A stretch of 20,000 nucleotides of DNA from an uncultured virus (IMG/VR IMGVR_UViG_3300037488_003510) (lineage: Duplodnaviria; Heunggongvirae; Uroviricota; Caudoviricetes). The stretch lies in the IMG/VR virus record IMGVR_UViG_3300037488_003510; one strand, 5' to 3'. The position numbers were made by a program, and so were the translations under genes. The notes under the pieces were generated by a model that saw nothing but the letters and a program-made list of their open reading frames with translations, did not search any database and was not told the DNA's origin. Shown here piece by piece: positions 1,812-14,404 of this stretch (position 1 is the first letter of the stretch; each line of letters begins with the position of its first letter).

Positions 1812-2111
1812 TTATCCCTTGCTCCCCGGCGACCTCCCCTCAAAAGAACATCTCGGGCATACCACCACCCGCACCCGTTCGGCAGGACCTGTCATCTCGT
1901 CGCAGGAGTGACATCGTATTTTTTCCTGTGGTTCCAAGGTTTTAGGCAACTGCCGGTTGGCAAGGTGTGCCATTCTCGCTGCCAGGTGTTGGGTTACGTC
2001 CTTTGAGGTACCTGGCGCCAGATGGGGCGCCAGCATGATCGCAAATTCACCCGCCAGCTTCACCACGCGCTCATCGTAATCAAAGTCGATTTTCAGCTGA
2101 TGTCCCATCAC
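1812..2111 (-). CDS. Hypothetical protein with C-terminal zinc ribbon
   Basis: CHSC...CPRC; start overlaps the stop of the upstream gene. Confidence 0.75.
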   Translation of the reverse strand: MMGHQLKIDFDYDERVVKLAGEFAIMLAPHLAPGTSKDVTQHLAARMAHLANRQLPKTLEPQEKIRCHSCDEMTGPAERVRVVVCPRCSFEGRSPGSKG

Positions 2112-2383
2112 CCAACGTCCTTTCCAACCGTTTTCCGAGGACGCCCAACCTTCGAACGTGGCAGATCGCCCAGATTTATCCCAAGCAACCTCATCCGGTG
2201 GTAAAGATTGGCCCTCTGGAGACCCAAGGACAAAGCTGTCTTGCTCCGGCAGAAACCATTGACTTGCAACGCTTTGATAATGACGATCCTCTCGTAGGAG
2301 GCCATGATTTCAGCCAGCGTTCTAGGTGTCACCCCAGACTCCACAGCTCGTCGCGAACCAGATGTGAACCCAGATTTGGACAT
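2108..2383 (-). CDS. Stand-alone Fis/NtrC-type HTH protein with AT-hook-like GRPRK tail
   Basis: TLAEIMASYERIVIIKALQVNGFCRSKTALSLGLQRANLYHRMRLLGI matches the HTH_8 pattern. ATG 2383 with AGGAGG overlapping the polymerase stop. Confidence 0.85.
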   Translation of the reverse strand: MSKSGFTSGSRRAVESGVTPRTLAEIMASYERIVIIKALQVNGFCRSKTALSLGLQRANLYHRMRLLGINLGDLPRSKVGRPRKTVGKDVG

Positions 2384-2396
2384 ACAAAAAAACCTC

Positions 2397-4547
2397 CTAC
2401 ACAGCGGCAGCCAACATGGACTTCGTGGCAAAGTCAAATCGTGACGTGATGTCCTTCTCAAAGTCAAACCCTTTCGGGTAACAATCCCCAGACTTTAACT
2501 CGTCAATGCTCCAAGGCCTTGTTTCACCGTCCGGATAGTGAAATCTCTTCGACAACATCTCAAACGTCAGGGCTTTAATCACAAGCATCTCAAAAGGTGC
2601 TGTGGTGTAACGACCACCAACCATCGTTCGATACAGCTCGCGTATGCGGGTCATCCTTTGCACGCCAATGCGATCTCCCGCGATGATTTTGTCCAACTTC
2701 TCGAATGCCTGCTTCCCGGAACCAAGAGAAAAACCCTTGGCTTTGTTGAGTTGCTTCGGTTTCCAGGTGCCATCGCGCATAAGCTCGAAGCCCTCACCAC
2801 GGTAGATCTTGGGCGCCACGAACTCGGCCCATTCCATCTTCTTCTCTAGCTTCAAAGCACCTAAATTCTTGTCGTCAATAGGCAAATCAGCCTTGGTGGC
2901 CAATGAGTCAGTGTCGCAATAGTAAAGCTCGTGGCCCTGCCGATAGCACTCCTTAGCATAATCATACAAGGTACGACGTGCAATGGAAGTGATGACCGAG
3001 GCGATGGGTACATGTCGATGGGTGATGGTGGCCTCTTTCTCGGCTAGCCACACACCTGGCTGCATCATCTGCATGCAAGTCCGATCAATCTCCTTGGGAT
3101 TGATGAGCATCTCCTGCTTTGAGGTAGACTCAGCCGTCTTTCCATAGAGACTATTGAGAAGATACTTCAATATCAGTTTTCTGAAATCCGTTGTTGAGTC
3201 TGCCCTCAGCTTGTAGATCTTCCTCGCGTACTCGGCAAAATCGTAGAACGGTTCAAAGATGTAGCACTCGTGAACTTTGTGAAGAATCGCCCCCTCTCTT
3301 AACGCCAGCCGAATGTCCGTCGAGGTGAACCAGGAGCGCCATCTCCCTATGGGAAAGAAAACTCGATTGTCTTTCCGGTAAGGAAGTGGAGGAAGTTGCA
3401 TCTCCGGGACTTCAATAGTCACGTTTGCTAAATAGATACACTCGTCAGAGTCTTCCTCTGGCAGCGAAGTCCGAAACTCAATGAGATTTCCTGGTAAGGG
3501 AAAAGTCATCGAGTATGGAAAGGAGGAGTTGATGTCATACATGAGGAAATCAGTGGCGTTTCGGCTGAGAACCTCCACGCGACTGGCAAAGTAAGACTGT
3601 TGGCAGATTTGGTTGAGGCTCTCGGATGTGAAAATGTCTCGCTTGAGGAAGGCCCTGCGAAACAATGTCATGGCGGTCGAGGCAATTGTCTGTTGGAGTT
3701 GGCCGCCAAGACCGACTATCTCTTCCTCAAAGGCTGCTATGGCCTTCCATAAGATCTCACAGTCCGTCTTGTTGTACTCCGTGAGGATATCCTGTGGCAC
3801 CTCAGCGTAGAAAATGACCTTCTCAGGCTGAGACAACTCTTCGAAGTCAGTAATGGTGCGGCCAAGTCTTTTCGACATCCACGCCTTAGCCTCTTCGGAA
3901 TCTCCTTTTCGAATACCGATAGCTTTGCCAATGGACGATAGCTTGTCGCGCAATAACCAATACGAGTCGCAGAAATGCCAGGCATTCTTCCCGTTAATAA
4001 CGTGAATGATGATTGCTGATGAACCCGAGAAAGACGCCTTGATTTTCCAAGATCCAGAGCAATGCTCATACTCCTTTGTCTTGCCATCGGGTGAGTAAGC
4101 AGTAGAGCTGCGTTCGACTCCTCCCTCAGCAGCGATCTGATTCTTGATTTGTTCAAGCAAGTCGTCGAGCACAAACTGCATATCGGCCAGACCGCCAGCG
4201 TGAGCAAAGAACCAGTTCCCTCGATGCTCTCGCGACAACAGGAAGGTGACGAGGTCGCGTATCGAGCCGAAGCACTTGTACCGCTCCACAAGCTCTGGCT
4301 CTTCGTCTGAGGAGCCGTCGTCCATGTCCACGGCCTGTTGGTCGTAATACCCTGCCAAACGCAGCTGGAGCGGTCCTGTCATGCGTTTCTTGACAGGTAG
4401 GGGCACGCGGCAAGGCGCACGGATACCGTCGATCTGAACCTCGGTATTGATTAGCGCTGGCAGCGCGTCTCCGGGCACCCACTCAAGATCCAACACTCCA
4501 AAACGACGCAGCTTGCGCTCAGTTGTGATCGGATTGAAGACTGCCAA
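2397..4547 (-). CDS. polB: Family B DNA polymerase, protein-primed type (DNA_pol_B_2-like), with 3'-5' exonuclease domain
   Basis: ExoI DLE, ExoII HAGGLAD, DSYWLL, ExoIII YNKTD, motif A DINSSFP, TPR1-like PLPYR...FPIG, motif B KYLLNSLYGK, ITSIAR, motif C YCDTDS, PKIY. TTG start with GAGGA upstream. Confidence 0.93.
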   Translation of the reverse strand: MAVFNPITTERKLRRFGVLDLEWVPGDALPALINTEVQIDGIRAPCRVPLPVKKRMTGPLQLRLAGYYDQQAVDMDDGSSDEEPELVERYKCFGSIRDLVTFLLSREHRGNWFFAHAGGLADMQFVLDDLLEQIKNQIAAEGGVERSSTAYSPDGKTKEYEHCSGSWKIKASFSGSSAIIIHVINGKNAWHFCDSYWLLRDKLSSIGKAIGIRKGDSEEAKAWMSKRLGRTITDFEELSQPEKVIFYAEVPQDILTEYNKTDCEILWKAIAAFEEEIVGLGGQLQQTIASTAMTLFRRAFLKRDIFTSESLNQICQQSYFASRVEVLSRNATDFLMYDINSSFPYSMTFPLPGNLIEFRTSLPEEDSDECIYLANVTIEVPEMQLPPLPYRKDNRVFFPIGRWRSWFTSTDIRLALREGAILHKVHECYIFEPFYDFAEYARKIYKLRADSTTDFRKLILKYLLNSLYGKTAESTSKQEMLINPKEIDRTCMQMMQPGVWLAEKEATITHRHVPIASVITSIARRTLYDYAKECYRQGHELYYCDTDSLATKADLPIDDKNLGALKLEKKMEWAEFVAPKIYRGEGFELMRDGTWKPKQLNKAKGFSLGSGKQAFEKLDKIIAGDRIGVQRMTRIRELYRTMVGGRYTTAPFEMLVIKALTFEMLSKRFHYPDGETRPWSIDELKSGDCYPKGFDFEKDITSRFDFATKSMLAAAV

Positions 4548-8106: not shown

Positions 8107-9315
8107 TCACTTCTCTCCCTCATAGTGAGCTGGTCTTGAACCATCTGGCGTCCACACGAACCTCACCAAAATCGAAGTGGGTGGCATTCCGCGCTTCTCC
8201 TCCACAGCATTGATCATCGAACGCAGTCCATGTCGCTCATCCGTTAGACTCAATTGAATGGGAGTCAAGTTGTCGGCTCTCGTCGGATATGTTCCAATCT
8301 GAAATAGTCCCCTGTACTCCTTGTAGAGCTTGGCAAACTCCTCCGCTTCGGACTCATTCTGAGCCCCAAAACGAATACCAAACGTGATCCAAAACTTGCC
8401 TCCCATAGGAGGCGTCACATCGAATTGTCTGAAAGACAAAAAAGCATTGCTCAAGGTGGCAATCAGATCTGGCAGTCCTTCAGGTACTCTCCACTCGTCA
8501 GGTAGATTCCCAACTCGCACCTCCCCATCAACCGTGCCGTCTGAATTGACAAAACTCTGCGCTGCCATGTCAAGTCCTTGGCCAATCAACTCTAAAGACT
8601 CCATGACCATCACAGCCCTCGTGTGAATCTCTGCCTCAGCCGCCAACGCACGATTCGAAATCAAGGGCCTCTCAGGTAATGCCCTCTTCTTAAACTTCCT
8701 AGGCTTCGCTGGCTTTCGTCTGACCAGCTTTGCTGGCTTCCGTCTAACGGGCTTCGCAGGCTTGCGTCTAGATGGTTTCGCGAGCTTCCGTTTAGCAAGC
8801 TTCGCGGTCTTCGTTGACGCTCGCTTGGCTAACTTCGCTGGGCGCCGCTTGATAGGCTTTACAAGCTTCCGCTTCGCTGTCTTCGTCGGTTTTGCCGACT
8901 TCCGCTTGCCCCTCTTTAGCGGCTTGAGAACCTTCGAGGACTTTCGTTCGGGTGGCTTAGCCGCCAACCTCTTAATAGACTTCGCTGTCTTACTCTTGGC
9001 AGACTTGGCAACCTTCACCAGTTTTTGGCTGGTTGGCTTCCCTGTCTTCGATGAAGTAATCGCCTTTGAAATCTTCCGTCGAAAAGGCTTTGCGATCTTC
9101 TTGAGCGGCGCCTCTGGCCTCCTCTTAACTCGCCTAGTTGGTCTAACTCCAACCTTTCCTAAGTCTTCCTTGTATGCCTTCGGCGCCACTGACCGTATGA
9201 CCCGCGACTTCGACTTCGCTCGAATGGGGTGTTCGGTCTTTTGGGCAGCTTCAGCTTCTCGCGATGCTGCTTTTAGCGAAACAAACTTACCGTAGCGATC
9301 TCGCATTAGGAACAT
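8107..9315 (-). CDS. Histone H1-like Lys/Arg-rich repeat protein with C-terminal globular domain
   Basis: AAGGAG upstream; RDRYGKF N-terminal motif, about 215 aa K/R/P/A-rich region, about 180 aa globular domain. Confidence 0.85.
   Translation of the reverse strand: MFLMRDRYGKFVSLKAASREAEAAQKTEHPIRAKSKSRVIRSVAPKAYKEDLGKVGVRPTRRVKRRPEAPLKKIAKPFRRKISKAITSSKTGKPTSQKLVKVAKSAKSKTAKSIKRLAAKPPERKSSKVLKPLKRGKRKSAKPTKTAKRKLVKPIKRRPAKLAKRASTKTAKLAKRKLAKPSRRKPAKPVRRKPAKLVRRKPAKPRKFKKRALPERPLISNRALAAEAEIHTRAVMVMESLELIGQGLDMAAQSFVNSDGTVDGEVRVGNLPDEWRVPEGLPDLIATLSNAFLSFRQFDVTPPMGGKFWITFGIRFGAQNESEAEEFAKLYKEYRGLFQIGTYPTRADNLTPIQLSLTDERHGLRSMINAVEEKRGMPPTSILVRFVWTPDGSRPAHYEGEK
8699..8935 (-). repeat. Degenerate coding tandem repeat (8- and 11-aa units, e.g. 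RRKPAKPV)
   Basis: AKRKLAKP SRRKPAKP VRRKPAKL VRRKPAKP; 24-nt periodicity with synonymous divergence. Confidence 0.75.
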
Positions 9316-9324
9316 GACTTCTCC

Positions 9325-10770
9325 TTACGATGGCTCGCCTGCGGGACTCTTGCTAAAAACAGACTGAGCAGTTGCCAATGCCTCTGACAATGGTTGCGAC
9401 AGCAATGGCACCTTTGGCATACCATCCGGAGTCTTCGACGAATCAAGTGTTCGCTTCTTGCGCACTTTGAATTTTCGAAACTTGGGAGAGAAGCCCCCCT
9501 GCACGAAATAGGAATGGCCTGGTAACAGAGCTGGAATGCAATCAATACACTCCTTGAGCTGGGGAGCTGTCACCAGGCGGCGCAACAGCTCCTCCACTGC
9601 CAGCAGATCTCTAGGATCGACCATGTTGAGCAACCACATACATTCAAACTGAGACCGTATGTTCTTGTTGATTACAGCTGGACGTTGCGTGATAATTGTC
9701 GTTCCAATGCCCTTTCCTCGGCCTCGCCTAACTAGACGGTCCAGGTTCTCCAGCGAACGCTTCTGATGAGAACTCGCCGCGCTCAACCTCTCGGGAGCAA
9801 ACTCGTCTGCCTCATCAATAAACACATGCAACGGCGACTTCGGCGAAGTAGCATATAGATGAGACGAAAAATCAGCCACGAACTCGTGCTGCTCAACCGG
9901 CGCCAACAACGACATGTCTACCTGAACGGCGTGGGGACGAATGGCATTCACTACCTCCGCAACCTTCGCTCCGTCCTTTGAGGTAATAGGCAAGTTCGCG
10001 TACACTCCACCAAAACGAAGGATATGATAAGGAGATGGCGAACCATCCTCCATCGAGCATAAACCACCCCACACCCCCATCGGATCGAGAATCACCAGCG
10101 GCACCTTCATTGTCGAGCAAGACAACATCTCCTCAGCCAACACCATGCCTAGGTAAGTCTTTCCAGAGTGTTTCTTGGCCAGTATGATCCCCGTGGTAGT
10201 AGCATAGGAAGCAGGTGACAACGTCAGGTTTTCCGCTGGTACTGACAATACTAGGCCACCCGACAGATCTTCCTTGTCACCCCGATCTTCCCCTCCCTCA
10301 CTGCCAAGTTCCTCATCCAATGAAAGTATCGTTTGACGTTCGGTTCTCATAGATGTCGATGAAACAGAAGTTTGCTCATTGGCCAACTCCACACCTGCCA
10401 ATAGCAAAAGTACATCCTGCGTCTCTTCGCCAGAGGCCAGCATTCGCAGTTTGAAACTGTTTCCAACTCGCGCGAAACCATACCCCCTCATCAATAGGGA
10501 GCGCATAGCTGCTACCCATTCGCCATGAGGCAACAGCTTGTCCATCTGATTGGTGGTATGGTACCGATGATCTAAGAACAAGCCTAATAGCTTGTCCTGC
10601 GGAGACTTGACAGCATTATGGCCGACGGGAGGTCGGCCTACATTCGGATCGCCTAGATATGTCGGACTCGATGTCCTTCTCGGGTGAGCGATTTCCGGCT
10701 CGCTTTCCTCCCTGGAAACAGTCGAGCGATCTCGAAACGGTGCCCGAGTGGGAAAGCGACCTCTCAGCAT
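9325..10770 (-). CDS. HerA/FtsK-superfamily (DUF87-like) P-loop ATPase with N-terminal winged-helix-like domain
   Basis: Walker A AKKHSGKT, ILDPMG, Walker B VFIDEAD, Arg finger RRGR, ITQRP. Confidence 0.88.
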   Translation of the reverse strand: MLRGRFPTRAPFRDRSTVSREESEPEIAHPRRTSSPTYLGDPNVGRPPVGHNAVKSPQDKLLGLFLDHRYHTTNQMDKLLPHGEWVAAMRSLLMRGYGFARVGNSFKLRMLASGEETQDVLLLLAGVELANEQTSVSSTSMRTERQTILSLDEELGSEGGEDRGDKEDLSGGLVLSVPAENLTLSPASYATTTGIILAKKHSGKTYLGMVLAEEMLSCSTMKVPLVILDPMGVWGGLCSMEDGSPSPYHILRFGGVYANLPITSKDGAKVAEVVNAIRPHAVQVDMSLLAPVEQHEFVADFSSHLYATSPKSPLHVFIDEADEFAPERLSAASSHQKRSLENLDRLVRRGRGKGIGTTIITQRPAVINKNIRSQFECMWLLNMVDPRDLLAVEELLRRLVTAPQLKECIDCIPALLPGHSYFVQGGFSPKFRKFKVRKKRTLDSSKTPDGMPKVPLLSQPLSEALATAQSVFSKSPAGEPS

Positions 10771-10845
10771 TGTGTATCACCCGGCAACATGAAGTCTCCA
10801 TGTCCGGAAAGTTCTGAGAACCGAATGTCTCGCATAATCGGCTCT

Positions 10846-11220
10846 CTAGGACTTCTTTGGTTCTACCGTCTCCGCGTCGACTACTTCTGGTCGTTCGGTC
10901 CCTTCTAGATCGCGTTTGCGCGGCTCCAGCTTCTGAACCCTAAATCGCCCATCGGCATAGATGGTAACGAGTTTGTGGGGGAATTTCCGCGCCCACGAGG
11001 TCAAAGTGGCCATGAATTCAGCCTGACGAGTATCCCCGACTCCCAAATACGTCTCAATCGCCTTTTCCAGCTGGTCTTCGTCGAAGAAATACTCAGTATC
11101 GTCCGCTCTCTTGTAGTGATACAAGCTGAGATGGGGGCAAAATGAGATCTGAGTTGTAGACGAATCGAGAATCGGATCGCCAACGGTTTGCGAAGATGTA
11201 ACAGGCGACTTTTCCATCAT
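10846..11220 (-). CDS. Hypothetical protein (124 aa)
   Basis: GGGAG upstream; in operon. Confidence 0.75.
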   Translation of the reverse strand: MMEKSPVTSSQTVGDPILDSSTTQISFCPHLSLYHYKRADDTEYFFDEDQLEKAIETYLGVGDTRQAEFMATLTSWARKFPHKLVTIYADGRFRVQKLEPRKRDLEGTERPEVVDAETVEPKKS

Positions 11221-11243
11221 GTGAAACTCCCGAAATCAAAAGA

Positions 11244-11343
11244 GGAAGAGAGAGCCCAAGGCAACTTCCACCTTCAGAAGTTGACGCAATTACTTGAACC
11301 ACCACCACCATGGTAATGGTCCCCACCTCGGGCTCTCTCCCCC
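11244..11343 (-). ncRNA. Candidate structured RNA (three-way junction) followed by U-rich tract
   Basis: 19-bp closing stem, 11-bp and 7-8-bp inner hairpins; all non-Watson-Crick positions are G-U on the minus strand. Confidence 0.65.
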
Positions 11344-11353
11344 ACACTACTCA

Positions 11354-11572
11354 CTACGAAACGGACTTTTTTGAAGCGAGCTTGCTAGAGACCGGCGTCT
11401 TCTTGTCGACATCGGCCTCCAGCAAAGTCAACGCCAACTGGCGTACCAACTGCGCCGTTTTGCTTCGCCAGCTATCCGTTTGTCGTCCATCTATCAGAAC
11501 CGCTGCTTCTAATCTCAGTAGAAAAGCAGCATCGGGTCTGTAGCTGACTCTTATTGCAACGGGCCGGCTCAT
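11354..11572 (-). CDS. Hypothetical protein (72 aa)
   Basis: Fills the gap directly after the SSB-like gene; tandem TAG TGA stops. Confidence 0.6.
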   Translation of the reverse strand: MSRPVAIRVSYRPDAAFLLRLEAAVLIDGRQTDSWRSKTAQLVRQLALTLLEADVDKKTPVSSKLASKKSVS

Positions 11573-11578
11573 GGCGAA

Positions 11579-12073
11579 TTACGAGTTGGCTTCGTCGGAA
11601 CCATCCGAGAAGTCGGGAGTCTCCTCCTCGATAGCACGAGGTGGACGATCCTGTTGCACTTGAACGTCGAGGTTGTGCATGGTGCGACCGCCAGTCAGCT
11701 TGATCTTCTGACCGATGACTCCAACCCACACCTTGTATTCCGCTCCTTGTTCGATCTGCGCGATGATCTTCTCCAGGGGCCTCGTCTTGGGGCCGTGATT
11801 GAGGTTGACATGATCGCCCGCCTTGGCAGTGACAATCTTGGCATCCTCAGCGTGTCCCATACGCACCTGGCAATCCTCCGTGATCTGCACCTGGAAGAAC
11901 TTCGAAGTGCCTCCCTTTGCAATCGCATCCTTGCGCTCATAGAGACCTTCCAACTTGCCATGACACACGTTCCCGACGAGCGACTGGTCGAACCAGCCCG
12001 CATCGGACACGCTACCAACACGACGGAAGCCCTCGGGCGCACGGGCGGTACCAACTGACTGCTGCTTTGCCAT
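11579..12073 (-). CDS. Putative single-stranded DNA-binding protein (OB-fold-like, acidic tail)
   Basis: Start re-assigned to ATG 12073 (GGAG upstream). Beta-rich pattern (VCHGKL, KFFQVQI, YKVWVGV, HNLDVQV) and tail EEETPDFSDGSDEANS; first gene of the replication arm. Confidence 0.65.
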   Translation of the reverse strand: MAKQQSVGTARAPEGFRRVGSVSDAGWFDQSLVGNVCHGKLEGLYERKDAIAKGGTSKFFQVQITEDCQVRMGHAEDAKIVTAKAGDHVNLNHGPKTRPLEKIIAQIEQGAEYKVWVGVIGQKIKLTGGRTMHNLDVQVQQDRPPRAIEEETPDFSDGSDEANS

Positions 12074-12160
12074 TCGTTTCTCTCCATTCACTGGGTTTGA
12101 CTGATGAGGACTCAGCTCCCGAACCGTTCGGGGCGATGCCTCCGACTCATGGACGGCCCG

Positions 12161-12189
12161 AACGTACTTCACGGCAAACCACTGTGCAA
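12161..12189 (-). promoter_or_regulatory. Leftward sigma70-type promoter
   Basis: Minus-strand TTGCAC-17 nt-TACGTT. Confidence 0.55.
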
Positions 12190-12225
12190 GGAAAAAATAT
12201 AGGGGGGGATATATTTTCCTCCCAC

Positions 12226-12255
12226 TTGCCCCACAAACCCACTGTGTGCTAGGCT
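12226..12255 (+). promoter_or_regulatory. Rightward sigma70-type promoter with extended -10
   Basis: TTGCCC-18 nt-TAGGCT with TGn; ATG 9 nt after the -10 box and no SD, so near-leaderless. Confidence 0.55.
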
Positions 12256-12264
12256 GCCACCCTC

Positions 12265-12468
12265 ATGCCGAAACCTCGCCGAGTATACGCACCTGTCGTC
12301 AGGACGTACATCAGTTCCAGTCGCTCGCCTGCCCGCAACGACTATCACGTTAGAATCTGCTCGCGACTGTATGGACTAGATCGCAAAGGCTCTGGAGAAT
12401 CCGTAGCACAGGCCGTTGCGAAAGCGCTAGAAGGAATCCCGCAAGCTAAAAAGAGAAAGCATCGATGA
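12265..12468 (+). CDS. Small basic hypothetical protein (67 aa)
   Basis: First ORF after the rightward promoter. Confidence 0.6.
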   Translation: MPKPRRVYAPVVRTYISSSRSPARNDYHVRICSRLYGLDRKGSGESVAQAVAKALEGIPQAKKRKHR

Positions 12469-12511
12469 TAGAATCTTCATGCTCTGAAACTTCAGTCCGT
12501 CTGCCTAACAC

Positions 12512-14404
12512 ATGAAAATCACCTTCTGGAAAAAGGTATTCGTGGCAGACTCCTTGCCCGAAGACCACGCTGCTCTCAAAAAAGCCGGCTTCGAACTCCA
12601 TGAGCCCACTCTGTGTGAAGACAAAGAACGATGCAGGGCTTGCAGAGCCAAGATAGGGCGTCGATTCTGGTCATCTAGAGTAGAAGATGCTACTCGTCTT
12701 CTCAGTCACTGTAACGACACTGCTAAATCCGTGATGAAACAGCATCTAGCCATGCTAGAGAAGTCCCGAGCAGTGTCCTCCAACATTGACATACCAGCAC
12801 CTCCAGGTCTGACGTACCTTCCGTATCAGAAAGCAGGAGTAGCCTACGCCCTCCAGCGCAAAGACACCTTAATAGGAGATGAACCCGGACTCGGAAAAAC
12901 AATACAAGCCCTGGGATTCATCAACAAGACGAAGCCGAAAAACGTCATCGTCGTGGCACCAGTTACCTTGGCTTTCAACTGGAAGCTTGAAGCAGAGAAG
13001 TGGCTCATTGATCCGTATGAAATCTTCATTCCCAAAACTGGAGCCGACGAAATCCCCGCCACAGAAAATGGTCTTTTTGTGATAACCAACTATGAGAAGT
13101 TGGTAGGATCTAGAAGTCGAAGTCTTATTCAGAAGTGGAAGTTTCGCTCATCAAAGAACGATCCAAAGGCAATTGAAAAGCTCAAAGAGCTAGAACAGAA
13201 ACTTCTAGTTCTGCGAAACTTGGCTCGTTCTGGTGACGAAAAAGCCGCAAGTCAAGTCAGCAAGATCGAAGAAGAACTGAATCTCCCTGTGACCGGAGAG
13301 TCAACAAGTAACTTCTGTGACAGTCTCAGAAGGATCTGGGACATAGCTATCTTTGATGAAGCCCAGGCCATCAAAAACCCCCAATCGAAACGCTCTCAGG
13401 CCGTACTCGGCGAAGAAGGACTCGTGCGCCGATCTCGCCGTACCCTCTTCCTCACAGGTACCCCCATCGAGAATTACCCCAAGGAAATATGGCCGGTCGC
13501 CGCCACCATCTGCCCAGCCAAATTCGGAGACTGGTGGGCTTTCGCTCGCCGCTACTGCGGCCTCCACACCGAGGTTCACAACAACCGCAAGGTATACGTC
13601 ACCACGGGCTCATCCCACCTCTCCGAGCTACAGCAACGCTTACGCTCCTCCTTTATGGTGAGGCGCCTCAAACACGACGTCCTCAAAGAGCTGCCCCCCA
13701 AACGACGCCAGCTCGTCGTCCTAGGCGACGAAACCATAGACTGGAATTCGCACCCGGACTTCCAGCGCTGGAAGAAACTCTACGAGAGCCAGTACGAAGC
13801 TGCCTTAGCGCGACTTGAAGCCTCTAAGACCCTAGGCGAGTACAAAAAGGCGCTCAAGGATCTCCAGGCCACCACAGGTGTAGCTTTCACGGAAATGTCT
13901 GAGTTTCGACACAAAACCGCGCTAGCAAAATTGCCACTTTGCCTAAAGTACATCGATGATTTGCTTGCAACCGAAATCGAAAACGTGGTCATTTTTGCTC
14001 ACCATCAAGACGTACTAGAGAAGATCCACGAACACTACAAAGAATCCTCCTGTCTGCTTTACGGAAACACTCCCATGGAAAAGCGAGGAGACATCGTCAA
14101 GCAGTTTCAGGATGGTCATAAGAGAATCTTCATCGGTGGTCTCAAACCAGCTGGAACCGGCATAACGCTCACTCGTGCCAGCACTGTCATATTCATCGAA
14201 ATCGACTGGGTACCAGCTGTACTATCTCAAGCAGAAGACAGGTTATGCCGAATCGGACAGAAAAAGATGGTTCACGTCATCCACTTGGTGCTCAACAACA
14301 CCTTGGATGTGAATATGTCCAAGAAAGTAATCGCCAAACAAGACATCATCGACAAGGCGCTAGATCGTCTACCTGAACACATTCGTCTCAAGCATGCTGT
14401 GTAA
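12512..14404 (+). CDS. SNF2-family (SMARCAL1/HARP-like) helicase/translocase
   Basis: LPYQKAGV, DEPGLGKT, ITNYE, DEAQ, LTGTP, RRLKHDVLKELPPK, VIFAHH, GITLT, QAEDRLCRIGQ. Confidence 0.95.
   Translation: MKITFWKKVFVADSLPEDHAALKKAGFELHEPTLCEDKERCRACRAKIGRRFWSSRVEDATRLLSHCNDTAKSVMKQHLAMLEKSRAVSSNIDIPAPPGLTYLPYQKAGVAYALQRKDTLIGDEPGLGKTIQALGFINKTKPKNVIVVAPVTLAFNWKLEAEKWLIDPYEIFIPKTGADEIPATENGLFVITNYEKLVGSRSRSLIQKWKFRSSKNDPKAIEKLKELEQKLLVLRNLARSGDEKAASQVSKIEEELNLPVTGESTSNFCDSLRRIWDIAIFDEAQAIKNPQSKRSQAVLGEEGLVRRSRRTLFLTGTPIENYPKEIWPVAATICPAKFGDWWAFARRYCGLHTEVHNNRKVYVTTGSSHLSELQQRLRSSFMVRRLKHDVLKELPPKRRQLVVLGDETIDWNSHPDFQRWKKLYESQYEAALARLEASKTLGEYKKALKDLQATTGVAFTEMSEFRHKTALAKLPLCLKYIDDLLATEIENVVIFAHHQDVLEKIHEHYKESSCLLYGNTPMEKRGDIVKQFQDGHKRIFIGGLKPAGTGITLTRASTVIFIEIDWVPAVLSQAEDRLCRIGQKKMVHVIHLVLNNTLDVNMSKKVIAKQDIIDKALDRLPEHIRLKHAV

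Follow-up and report, generated by a model that had tools for sequence, protein, structure and literature searches.

A long, G+C-rich hairpin followed by a U-rich stretch fills the minus-strand gap between the small genes o72 and o124 in the window (the whole 20-kb stretch of DNA that was analysed), and a strong hairpin stands 3-36 nt past the o72 stop codon in all 11 syntenic loci that were found. The hairpin is probably a leaky intrinsic terminator, which would also stabilise the 3' end of the upstream message and set the ratio of upstream to downstream expression; we infer termination, its leakiness and the stabilisation from the features described below. The element had been introduced in a first-pass annotation as a candidate new three-way-junction RNA, a description that does not carry over to the family: most relatives have no branches, and the columns of the inner helices P2 and P3 hold letters in one of the seven rows of the covariance-model alignment, that of the window alone. 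Because only the window, L005 and L006/L007 have branched interiors, the conserved object is the long hairpin and not the three-way junction. Among the roles offered in that annotation (attenuator, processing element or small RNA), the attenuator fits best, and the hairpin is placed where expression of the SSB-like gene could be separated from that of the ATPase and polymerase genes.

The genes concerned form a same-direction run on the minus strand in the order o197, o72, gap, o124, ATPase, 402-aa protein, ThyX, MazG-like pyrophosphatase and PolB, with the polymerase near the far end of the run (Table 1); the plus strand from 12512 encodes a SNF2 helicase, a ParB-like protein and a DUF2786 protein. 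The polymerase shares 25-28% identity with its closest relatives among reference phages (Methanosarcina spherical virus, tectiviruses), the 402-aa protein gave no usable match in the ESM Atlas, and a blastn search with 9000-13000 against reference phages gave no match. PolB, the HerA/FtsK-type ATPase and the 402-aa protein lie on a contig of approximately 129 kb, which is far larger than known tectivirus-like genomes; the element may be a large phage, a plasmid or an integrated element. A bacterial host is suggested by the type of the predicted promoter and by the Fis-type HTH_8 domain of a small protein. Two other stems are found on the minus strand of the window, i.e. a 21-bp imperfect stem at 1116-1166 in the gap after a 216-aa ORF, and a 15-bp stem at 537-574, just past the ORF that ends the run and opposed by a convergent ORF on the plus strand. 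No U run follows either stem directly.

Table 1. Positions in the window of the hairpin, its parts and the neighbouring genes and signals
Feature	Position	Strand	Basis or remark
A/T-rich, partly palindromic element GGAAAATATAT..TATATTTTTTCC	12190..12219	minus	adjoins -35 box upstream
Sigma-70-like promoter: -35 TTGCAC (12189-12184), 17-nt spacer, -10 TACGTT (12166-12161)	12161..12189	minus	predicted
o197, OB-fold, SSB-like, acidic C-terminal tail	11579..12073	minus	homologue alignment and AlphaFold2 model
o72, conserved small protein, 72 aa	11354..11572	minus	homologue alignment
P1 5' arm GGGGGAGAGAGCCCGAGG	11326..11343	minus	purine-rich
P2 hairpin	11296..11322	minus	12 bp, AUG loop (minimum-energy fold)
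Joiner AAGUAAUUGCGU, 12 nt, unpaired	11284..11295	minus	fold
P3 hairpin	11262..11283	minus	8 bp, 6-nt loop GAAGGU
P1 3' arm CCUUGGGCUCUCUCUUCC	11244..11261	minus	pyrimidine-rich
U-rich tail UCUUUUGAUUU	11233..11243	minus	directly 3' of P1
Shine-Dalgarno GGGAG for o124	11227..11231	minus	sequence read
o124, conserved protein, 124 aa, first gene past hairpin	10846..11220	minus	homologues
HerA/FtsK-type ATPase	9325..10770	minus	weak AAA, PHROG terminase/FtsK-like families, NCBIfam HerA
402-aa protein	8107..9315	minus	ORF
Protein-primed family B DNA polymerase	2397..4547	minus	Pfam DNA_pol_B_2, E 2e-32
Fis-type HTH_8 small protein	2108..2467	minus	domain E 1.6e-8, just downstream of polymerase gene

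Folding of the minus strand from 11353 to 11221 gave a branched structure of the helices P1, P2 and P3, comprising the element proper (11343-11244) and its tail. The fold energy is -61.6 kcal/mol, compared with a mean of -40.6 (sd 3.5) in 200 dinucleotide shuffles (z -5.94), none of which equalled it, and the hairpin keeps its fold within 381 nt of context. When a 120-nt frame was slid along both strands of the entire window, no stretch folded more stably than 11241-11360 of the minus strand (-59.3; mean of that strand -32.9, sd 6.6); the plus strand of the same bases reached only -40.3. P1 (11343-11326 with 11261-11244) is made up of 18 bp, i.e. 11 G-C, 4 A-U and 3 G-U pairs, and becomes the helix of 19 bp with four G-U pairs that the first-pass annotation had drawn when the closing U-G pair is counted in. 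P1 encloses an interior of 64 nt, which is branched into two sub-hairpins. The P2 hairpin was recovered in a minimum-energy register of 12 bp rather than the 11 bp first given; the 11-bp register is a slipped alternative, and the slippage foreseen in the first-pass annotation is permitted by the GGU repeat in P2. The 12-nt joiner, P3 and the tail before the next Shine-Dalgarno sequence are all found in the fold as first described, and the element indeed fills the intergenic gap: from the o72 stop (11354) to the o124 ATG (11220) there are 133 nt, with 10 nt between the o72 stop and the start of P1, and 23 nt between the end of P1 (11244) and the ATG.

Relatives were gathered by a profile search with the ATPase in metagenome, genome and viral collections, which yielded 11 syntenic loci, nine of them distinct: L001 (= L002), L003, L004, L005, L006 (~ L007), L009, L010, L011 and L024; a further locus, L008, was left out, as it begins inside o124. 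The gene order o197, o72, gap, o124, ATPase is kept in all 11 loci; compared with the window, their ATPases are 36-50% identical, and their o72 products 50-70% identical across the N-terminal portion that aligns. Searches of the viral contig collection with the ATPase and with the polymerase gave no close relatives, and the ATPase profile search there recovered distant ATPases only, without synteny. L024 is a 9.7-kb contig in a bin labelled as a Conexivisphaerales archaeon; its promoter is of the bacterial type and its Shine-Dalgarno sites are strong, as in the other loci, and the archaeal label of the bin may be wrong for this contig.

The hairpins of the 10 loci that were folded have z-scores of -2.75 to -6.56, with none of 200 shuffles equal in nine of the loci and one of 200 in L010. 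Their basal stems comprise 13-28 bp and contain, in every locus, one to eight G-U pairs. In L001, L003, L004, L009, L010, L011 and L024 the stem is closed by a plain loop of 3-20 nt or by a small tip hairpin. The o124 homologues of the relatives are preceded by strong Shine-Dalgarno sequences, and their ATGs lie 17-107 nt from the hairpin. The sense strand is the more stably folded of the two in every one of the 11 sequences, by 1.2 to 31 kcal/mol; this difference, together with the G-U pairs in the stems, suggests that selection acts on the RNA, on the sense strand, and not on a DNA palindrome.

An AUGGUGG-like string was seen at the apical loops in the window (11296-11322), in L005 (about 1174-1203) and in L006 (about 3399-3421), and L024 contains a comparable string, GAUGGUAGG, at about 3490-3510. 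Short reading frames that open at the apical-loop AUG vary in length and sequence among the loci, and a conserved peptide starting at this AUG is therefore unlikely.

The arms of the hairpins follow a recurring pattern, a purine-rich 5' GGGRA..CC.RGG paired to a pyrimidine-rich CCY.GG..UYCCC. An alignment of all hairpins with MAFFT lost the register of the arms across the unequal loops and was excluded from the pair counts; for this reason a covariance model was used, with the window and L005 as its sole training sequences. In searches with the filters off, this model ranked the syntenic hairpin first in L001, L003, L004, L009 and L010 (E 0.001-0.008), and likewise in L011, at E 0.38; the match in L006 had E 0.049, and that in L024 only E 9.7. 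The score for the sense strand is above that for the antisense strand in every locus. A search of 54 distant loci (398 kb) with the default filters, which are less sensitive, gave nothing. In the window, a weak match (13.6 bits, E 0.07, filters off) was seen at 3117-3218 on the plus strand, antisense inside the polymerase gene, and is probably due to chance.

In the seven-row model alignment, 15 of 17 P1 pairs are changed on both sides and 99% of the cells are paired; the model had aligned these rows to the structure, which favours pairing. None of 500 column shuffles reached any of five measures (the shuffle maximum was 71% pairing), and pairing fell to 59-65% when the partner was slid by one column. 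Many of the changes are purine/pyrimidine transitions within purine-rich 5' and pyrimidine-rich 3' arms, where composition alone lets three of the four combinations pair. As a check independent of the model fit, the window and L005 were aligned with plain MAFFT: all 17 P1 pairs are kept, with six double changes. Covariation, which the first-pass annotation had allowed might be missing, is thus strong in the basal helix P1.

Several features of intrinsic terminators are present. P1 provides the G+C-rich stem on the sense strand (18 bp with 11 G-C pairs), and the 10 nt right after P1 in the window, UCUUUUGAUU, contain 7 U, a count matched by 0.8% of the 10-nt windows on the same strand. Summed over the first 10 nt past the stems of 10 loci, 47 U are found compared with 23 expected from each locus's own composition. 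The individual counts are 7 of 10 in the window and L024, 6 in L009, and 5 in L001 and L005; L011 has a moderate tail (4), and the tails of L003 (4) and L010 (3) are weak. In L004 and L006 the stems were over-extended in the U count, so that the counted tails (4 and 2 U) do not adjoin the core stem; the tails beside the core stems of these two loci are U-rich. In the window, the U run of the tail is interrupted.

The homologue in L009 is the simplest (13-bp stem, 3-nt loop, tail UUUCUUAU) and has the textbook shape of an intrinsic terminator; it was called by a simple terminator scan with 13 pairs, a 3-nt loop and the tail TTTCTTAT. The same scan did not call the hairpin of the window, because its 64-nt interior exceeds the loop limit of the scan: the small loop of intrinsic terminators, typically 3-8 nt, is absent in the window and present in L009. 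By position, the hairpin follows the o72 stop codon and comes last in a unit that opens with a promoter. No sigma-70-like site was found between the hairpin and the next gene in the window, L006, L011, L009 and L001, which is a weak negative, since the simple promoter scan would miss the conserved o197 promoter too.

For the upstream unit, a sigma-70-like promoter is predicted in front of o197. In the seven aligned loci (window; L001, 2601-2700; L003, 1914-2013; L004, 2436-2535; L005, 213-312; L011, 2594-2693; L024, 2503-2602), TTG and TAnnnT are invariant and 17-18 nt apart, and the blocks AAAATRTRT ... ATATTTTTT are kept upstream of the promoter in 7 of 7. This A/T-rich stretch may serve as an UP element or as an operator. 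The promoter-associated T-rich motif has one full match in the window and no second copy.

The mechanically derived o197 ORF (11579-12172) begins with a GTG at 12172 that precedes the predicted -10 box. The alignment of homologues and the place of the promoter agree on the ATG at 12073, which is therefore probably the true start (164 aa); with the start moved to this ATG, a 59-aa ORF at 12169-12348 is probably no gene. No Pfam, PHROG or NCBIfam match was obtained for o197. Its AlphaFold2 model is a beta-barrel (pLDDT 80.5) with weak fold matches to bacterial SSBs, PRD1 P12, RB69/T4 gp32 and the OB domains of eIF5A/EF-P (Foldseek E about 0.02-0.09; VIA Z 3.8-6.2). An SSB-like function, and with it the label 'SSB' of the first-pass annotation, is plausible from this model, although the fold matches on which the label rests are weak.

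The o72 product shows 44-58% identity across 10 aligned sequences, and o72 is the best-conserved small gene in the module. Its ATG, 6 nt past the o197 stop, has a conserved context (..TCGCC ATG) that contains no Shine-Dalgarno sequence; the spacing, the context and the lack of a Shine-Dalgarno sequence together suggest translational coupling of o197 and o72. The predicted structure of the o72 product (monomer model) is a helical hairpin of two helices only, and fold searches returned generic helical-hairpin matches, none of them informative. Its N-terminal strand-helix-helix pattern recalls ribbon-helix-helix proteins, for which the fold searches and the two-helix model give no support.

These observations are best accommodated by a leaky terminator. 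The hairpin would close a small early unit that consists of the sigma-70-like promoter, the OB-fold SSB-like gene and the 72-aa gene, and the functional core would be the long, G+C-rich P1 with the U-rich tail. As soon as the 3' arm is transcribed, P1 would close beside the U-rich stretch and a fraction of the polymerases would release the RNA. Since there is no promoter-sized space before the next Shine-Dalgarno sequence in the window, o124, the ATPase gene, thyX and the polymerase gene would most likely be supplied by read-through, and termination would therefore be partial. The hairpin remaining at the 3' end would shield the short o197-o72 message from 3' exonucleases, and the net result would be an abundant upstream pair and scarce downstream enzymes. 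Ribosomes repress terminators that lie a few bp past a stop codon (PMC4824070); as P1 begins 10 nt past the o72 stop, a terminating ribosome could lower termination further. The three-way junction of the window would, as part of the same reading, rather likely be a lineage-specific elaboration of the terminator hairpin, with P2 and P3 an expansion of the apical loop that is confined to this and a few other lineages and presumably dispensable for the conserved function.

If the terminator reading is correct, the hairpin is an ordinary regulatory device by which a stoichiometric DNA-binding protein stays abundant while the downstream enzymes stay scarce, in the unusual setting of a protein-primed family that only metagenomes have so far revealed. 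The conserved promoter, two genes and terminator would be useful for annotating the transcription units of this family; furthermore, the element would represent a terminator hairpin that is traceable by covariation across proteins of 36-50% identity, and an example of such a hairpin acquiring a branched tip.

A rather unlikely reading, which survives best among the alternatives, is a processing or stability element without termination, i.e. an RNase III-type site or a 3' exonuclease barrier that would give the two halves of the message unequal half-lives. The duplex in question would be P1, possibly stacked on P2 (about 30 bp). The near-perfect stems of 13-28 bp are longer than termination needs, the geometry calls for read-through to the downstream genes, the U tails are weak in three relatives, and the hairpins at 1166-1116 and 574-537 on the same strand have no immediate U run, all of which would suit such an element. 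RNase III substrates comprise about two helical turns of near-perfect duplex; the window (18 bp, with 12 bp more if P2 stacks on P1) and L001 (28 bp) suffice for two turns, but L009 (13 bp) and L003 (17 bp) are short by this measure. Cleavage would also leave the enrichment in U (47 against 23 expected) unexplained.

It is improbable that the P1 box serves as a specific recognition site for a factor encoded by the element (most simply the 72-aa protein, whose gene is closely linked and conserved to the same degree, or the OB-fold protein), which would switch RNA polymerase between termination and read-through or control decay of the message. If it did, recognition of P1 would constitute a dedicated early-to-middle gene switch in an undescribed lineage of protein-primed elements, and the branched tip with its AUGGUGG-like loop (window, L005, L006/L007) would be an added, lineage-specific binding platform.

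A functional three-way junction, either as a regulatory or small RNA or as a phi29-like packaging scaffold that works with the ATPase, and with P2 and P3 as binding surfaces, is quite improbable. It would be in keeping with the recurrence of branched interiors in the window, L005 and L006/L007, with the AUGGUGG-like string that their apical hairpins share (and GAUGGUAGG in L024), and with a packaging-type ATPase nearby in a protein-primed element; however, six of the nine distinct relatives are unbranched, P2 and P3 are empty in six of seven rows of the model alignment, and a promoter of its own was not seen in a simple scan and a motif search. Known RNA families also offer no counterpart: no match at Rfam gathering thresholds was obtained across the 20-kb window, and with E values up to 10 allowed, nothing but generic microRNA-precursor hairpins matched (12.6-20.5 bits against cut-offs of 75-95.5; for the best scores, about 20 bits against about 76 or more). 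A tRNA/tmRNA search of the window with ARAGORN gave nothing. The covariance-model check against Rfam and the tRNA search thus agree with the first-pass statement that the element fits no tRNA, ribozyme or riboswitch. The leaky-terminator reading implies that the element, absent from Rfam, is in kind more probably a terminator or intercistronic hairpin than a new class of RNA.

An inverted repeat acting as DNA, i.e. a protein-binding site or a cruciform, with the small protein encoded upstream as candidate binder, is highly improbable. GGGRA..CC.RGG and its complement do recur in the arms across the relatives, and the upstream gene does encode a small conserved protein, but the sense strand folds better than the antisense strand in 11 of 11 sequences, the G-U pairs of the sense strand are A-C mismatches on the opposite strand, the arms are not fixed and vary by compensatory substitutions, and the covariance model favours the sense strand in every locus; the data support an element that acts at the RNA level, on the sense strand. 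That the region is coding can be practically dismissed, since the 84-aa ORF at 11093-11347 (minus strand), named in the first-pass annotation as a possible translated frame and open from a GTG start, overlaps the conserved o124 in another frame, its translation has no syntenic counterpart in any relative and only weak matches elsewhere in unrelated loci (best E 0.002), and the gaps of the relatives run from the o72 stop to the o124 start.

Among known systems, the pRNA of phage phi29 is the three-way-junction packaging RNA of protein-primed phages. It resembles the element of the window in being an RNA of about 110 nt with a closing helix of its 5' and 3' ends and two hairpin arms, and in its association with a protein-primed polymerase and a nearby packaging-type ATPase. 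In contrast to pRNA, the branches are missing in most relatives of the window, a separate promoter was not seen, there is no obvious loop-loop complementarity, the ATPase is HerA/FtsK-like, and no Rfam family matches the element of the window even at E up to 10.

The T7 early region and the Rhodobacter puf operon contain intercistronic RNase III sites or stabilising hairpins in polycistronic mRNAs. Long intergenic duplexes and unequal amounts of upstream and downstream message are common to these elements and the window; some of the homologues described here are too short (13-17 bp), however, and the U-rich tail is not a known feature of the T7 and puf elements. The early terminator TA1 of phi29 is reported to reduce expression of the genes that follow those for the abundant DNA-binding protein and SSB, and the logic proposed here is the same as far as the general description of TA1 goes: a protein-primed replicon with an abundant SSB upstream and catalytic replication proteins downstream.

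Compared with intrinsic terminators in general, the stem of the window is much longer (18 bp), its 64-nt interior carries two extra hairpins and its U run is interrupted; the sequence and structure of the stem can be traced across proteins of 36-50% identity. The closest counterparts are leaky terminators of the mccA-mccB type. The ratio of mccA to mccB transcripts is set by an intercistronic intrinsic terminator (PMC4231749). Terminators of this type share with the window a G+C-rich hairpin and a U-rich stretch past a stop codon, on the sense strand and within an operon that has further genes to be transcribed downstream. They also share what would be expected of the window, i.e. an abundant short and a rarer long transcript, and the textbook shape is that of the homologue in L009.
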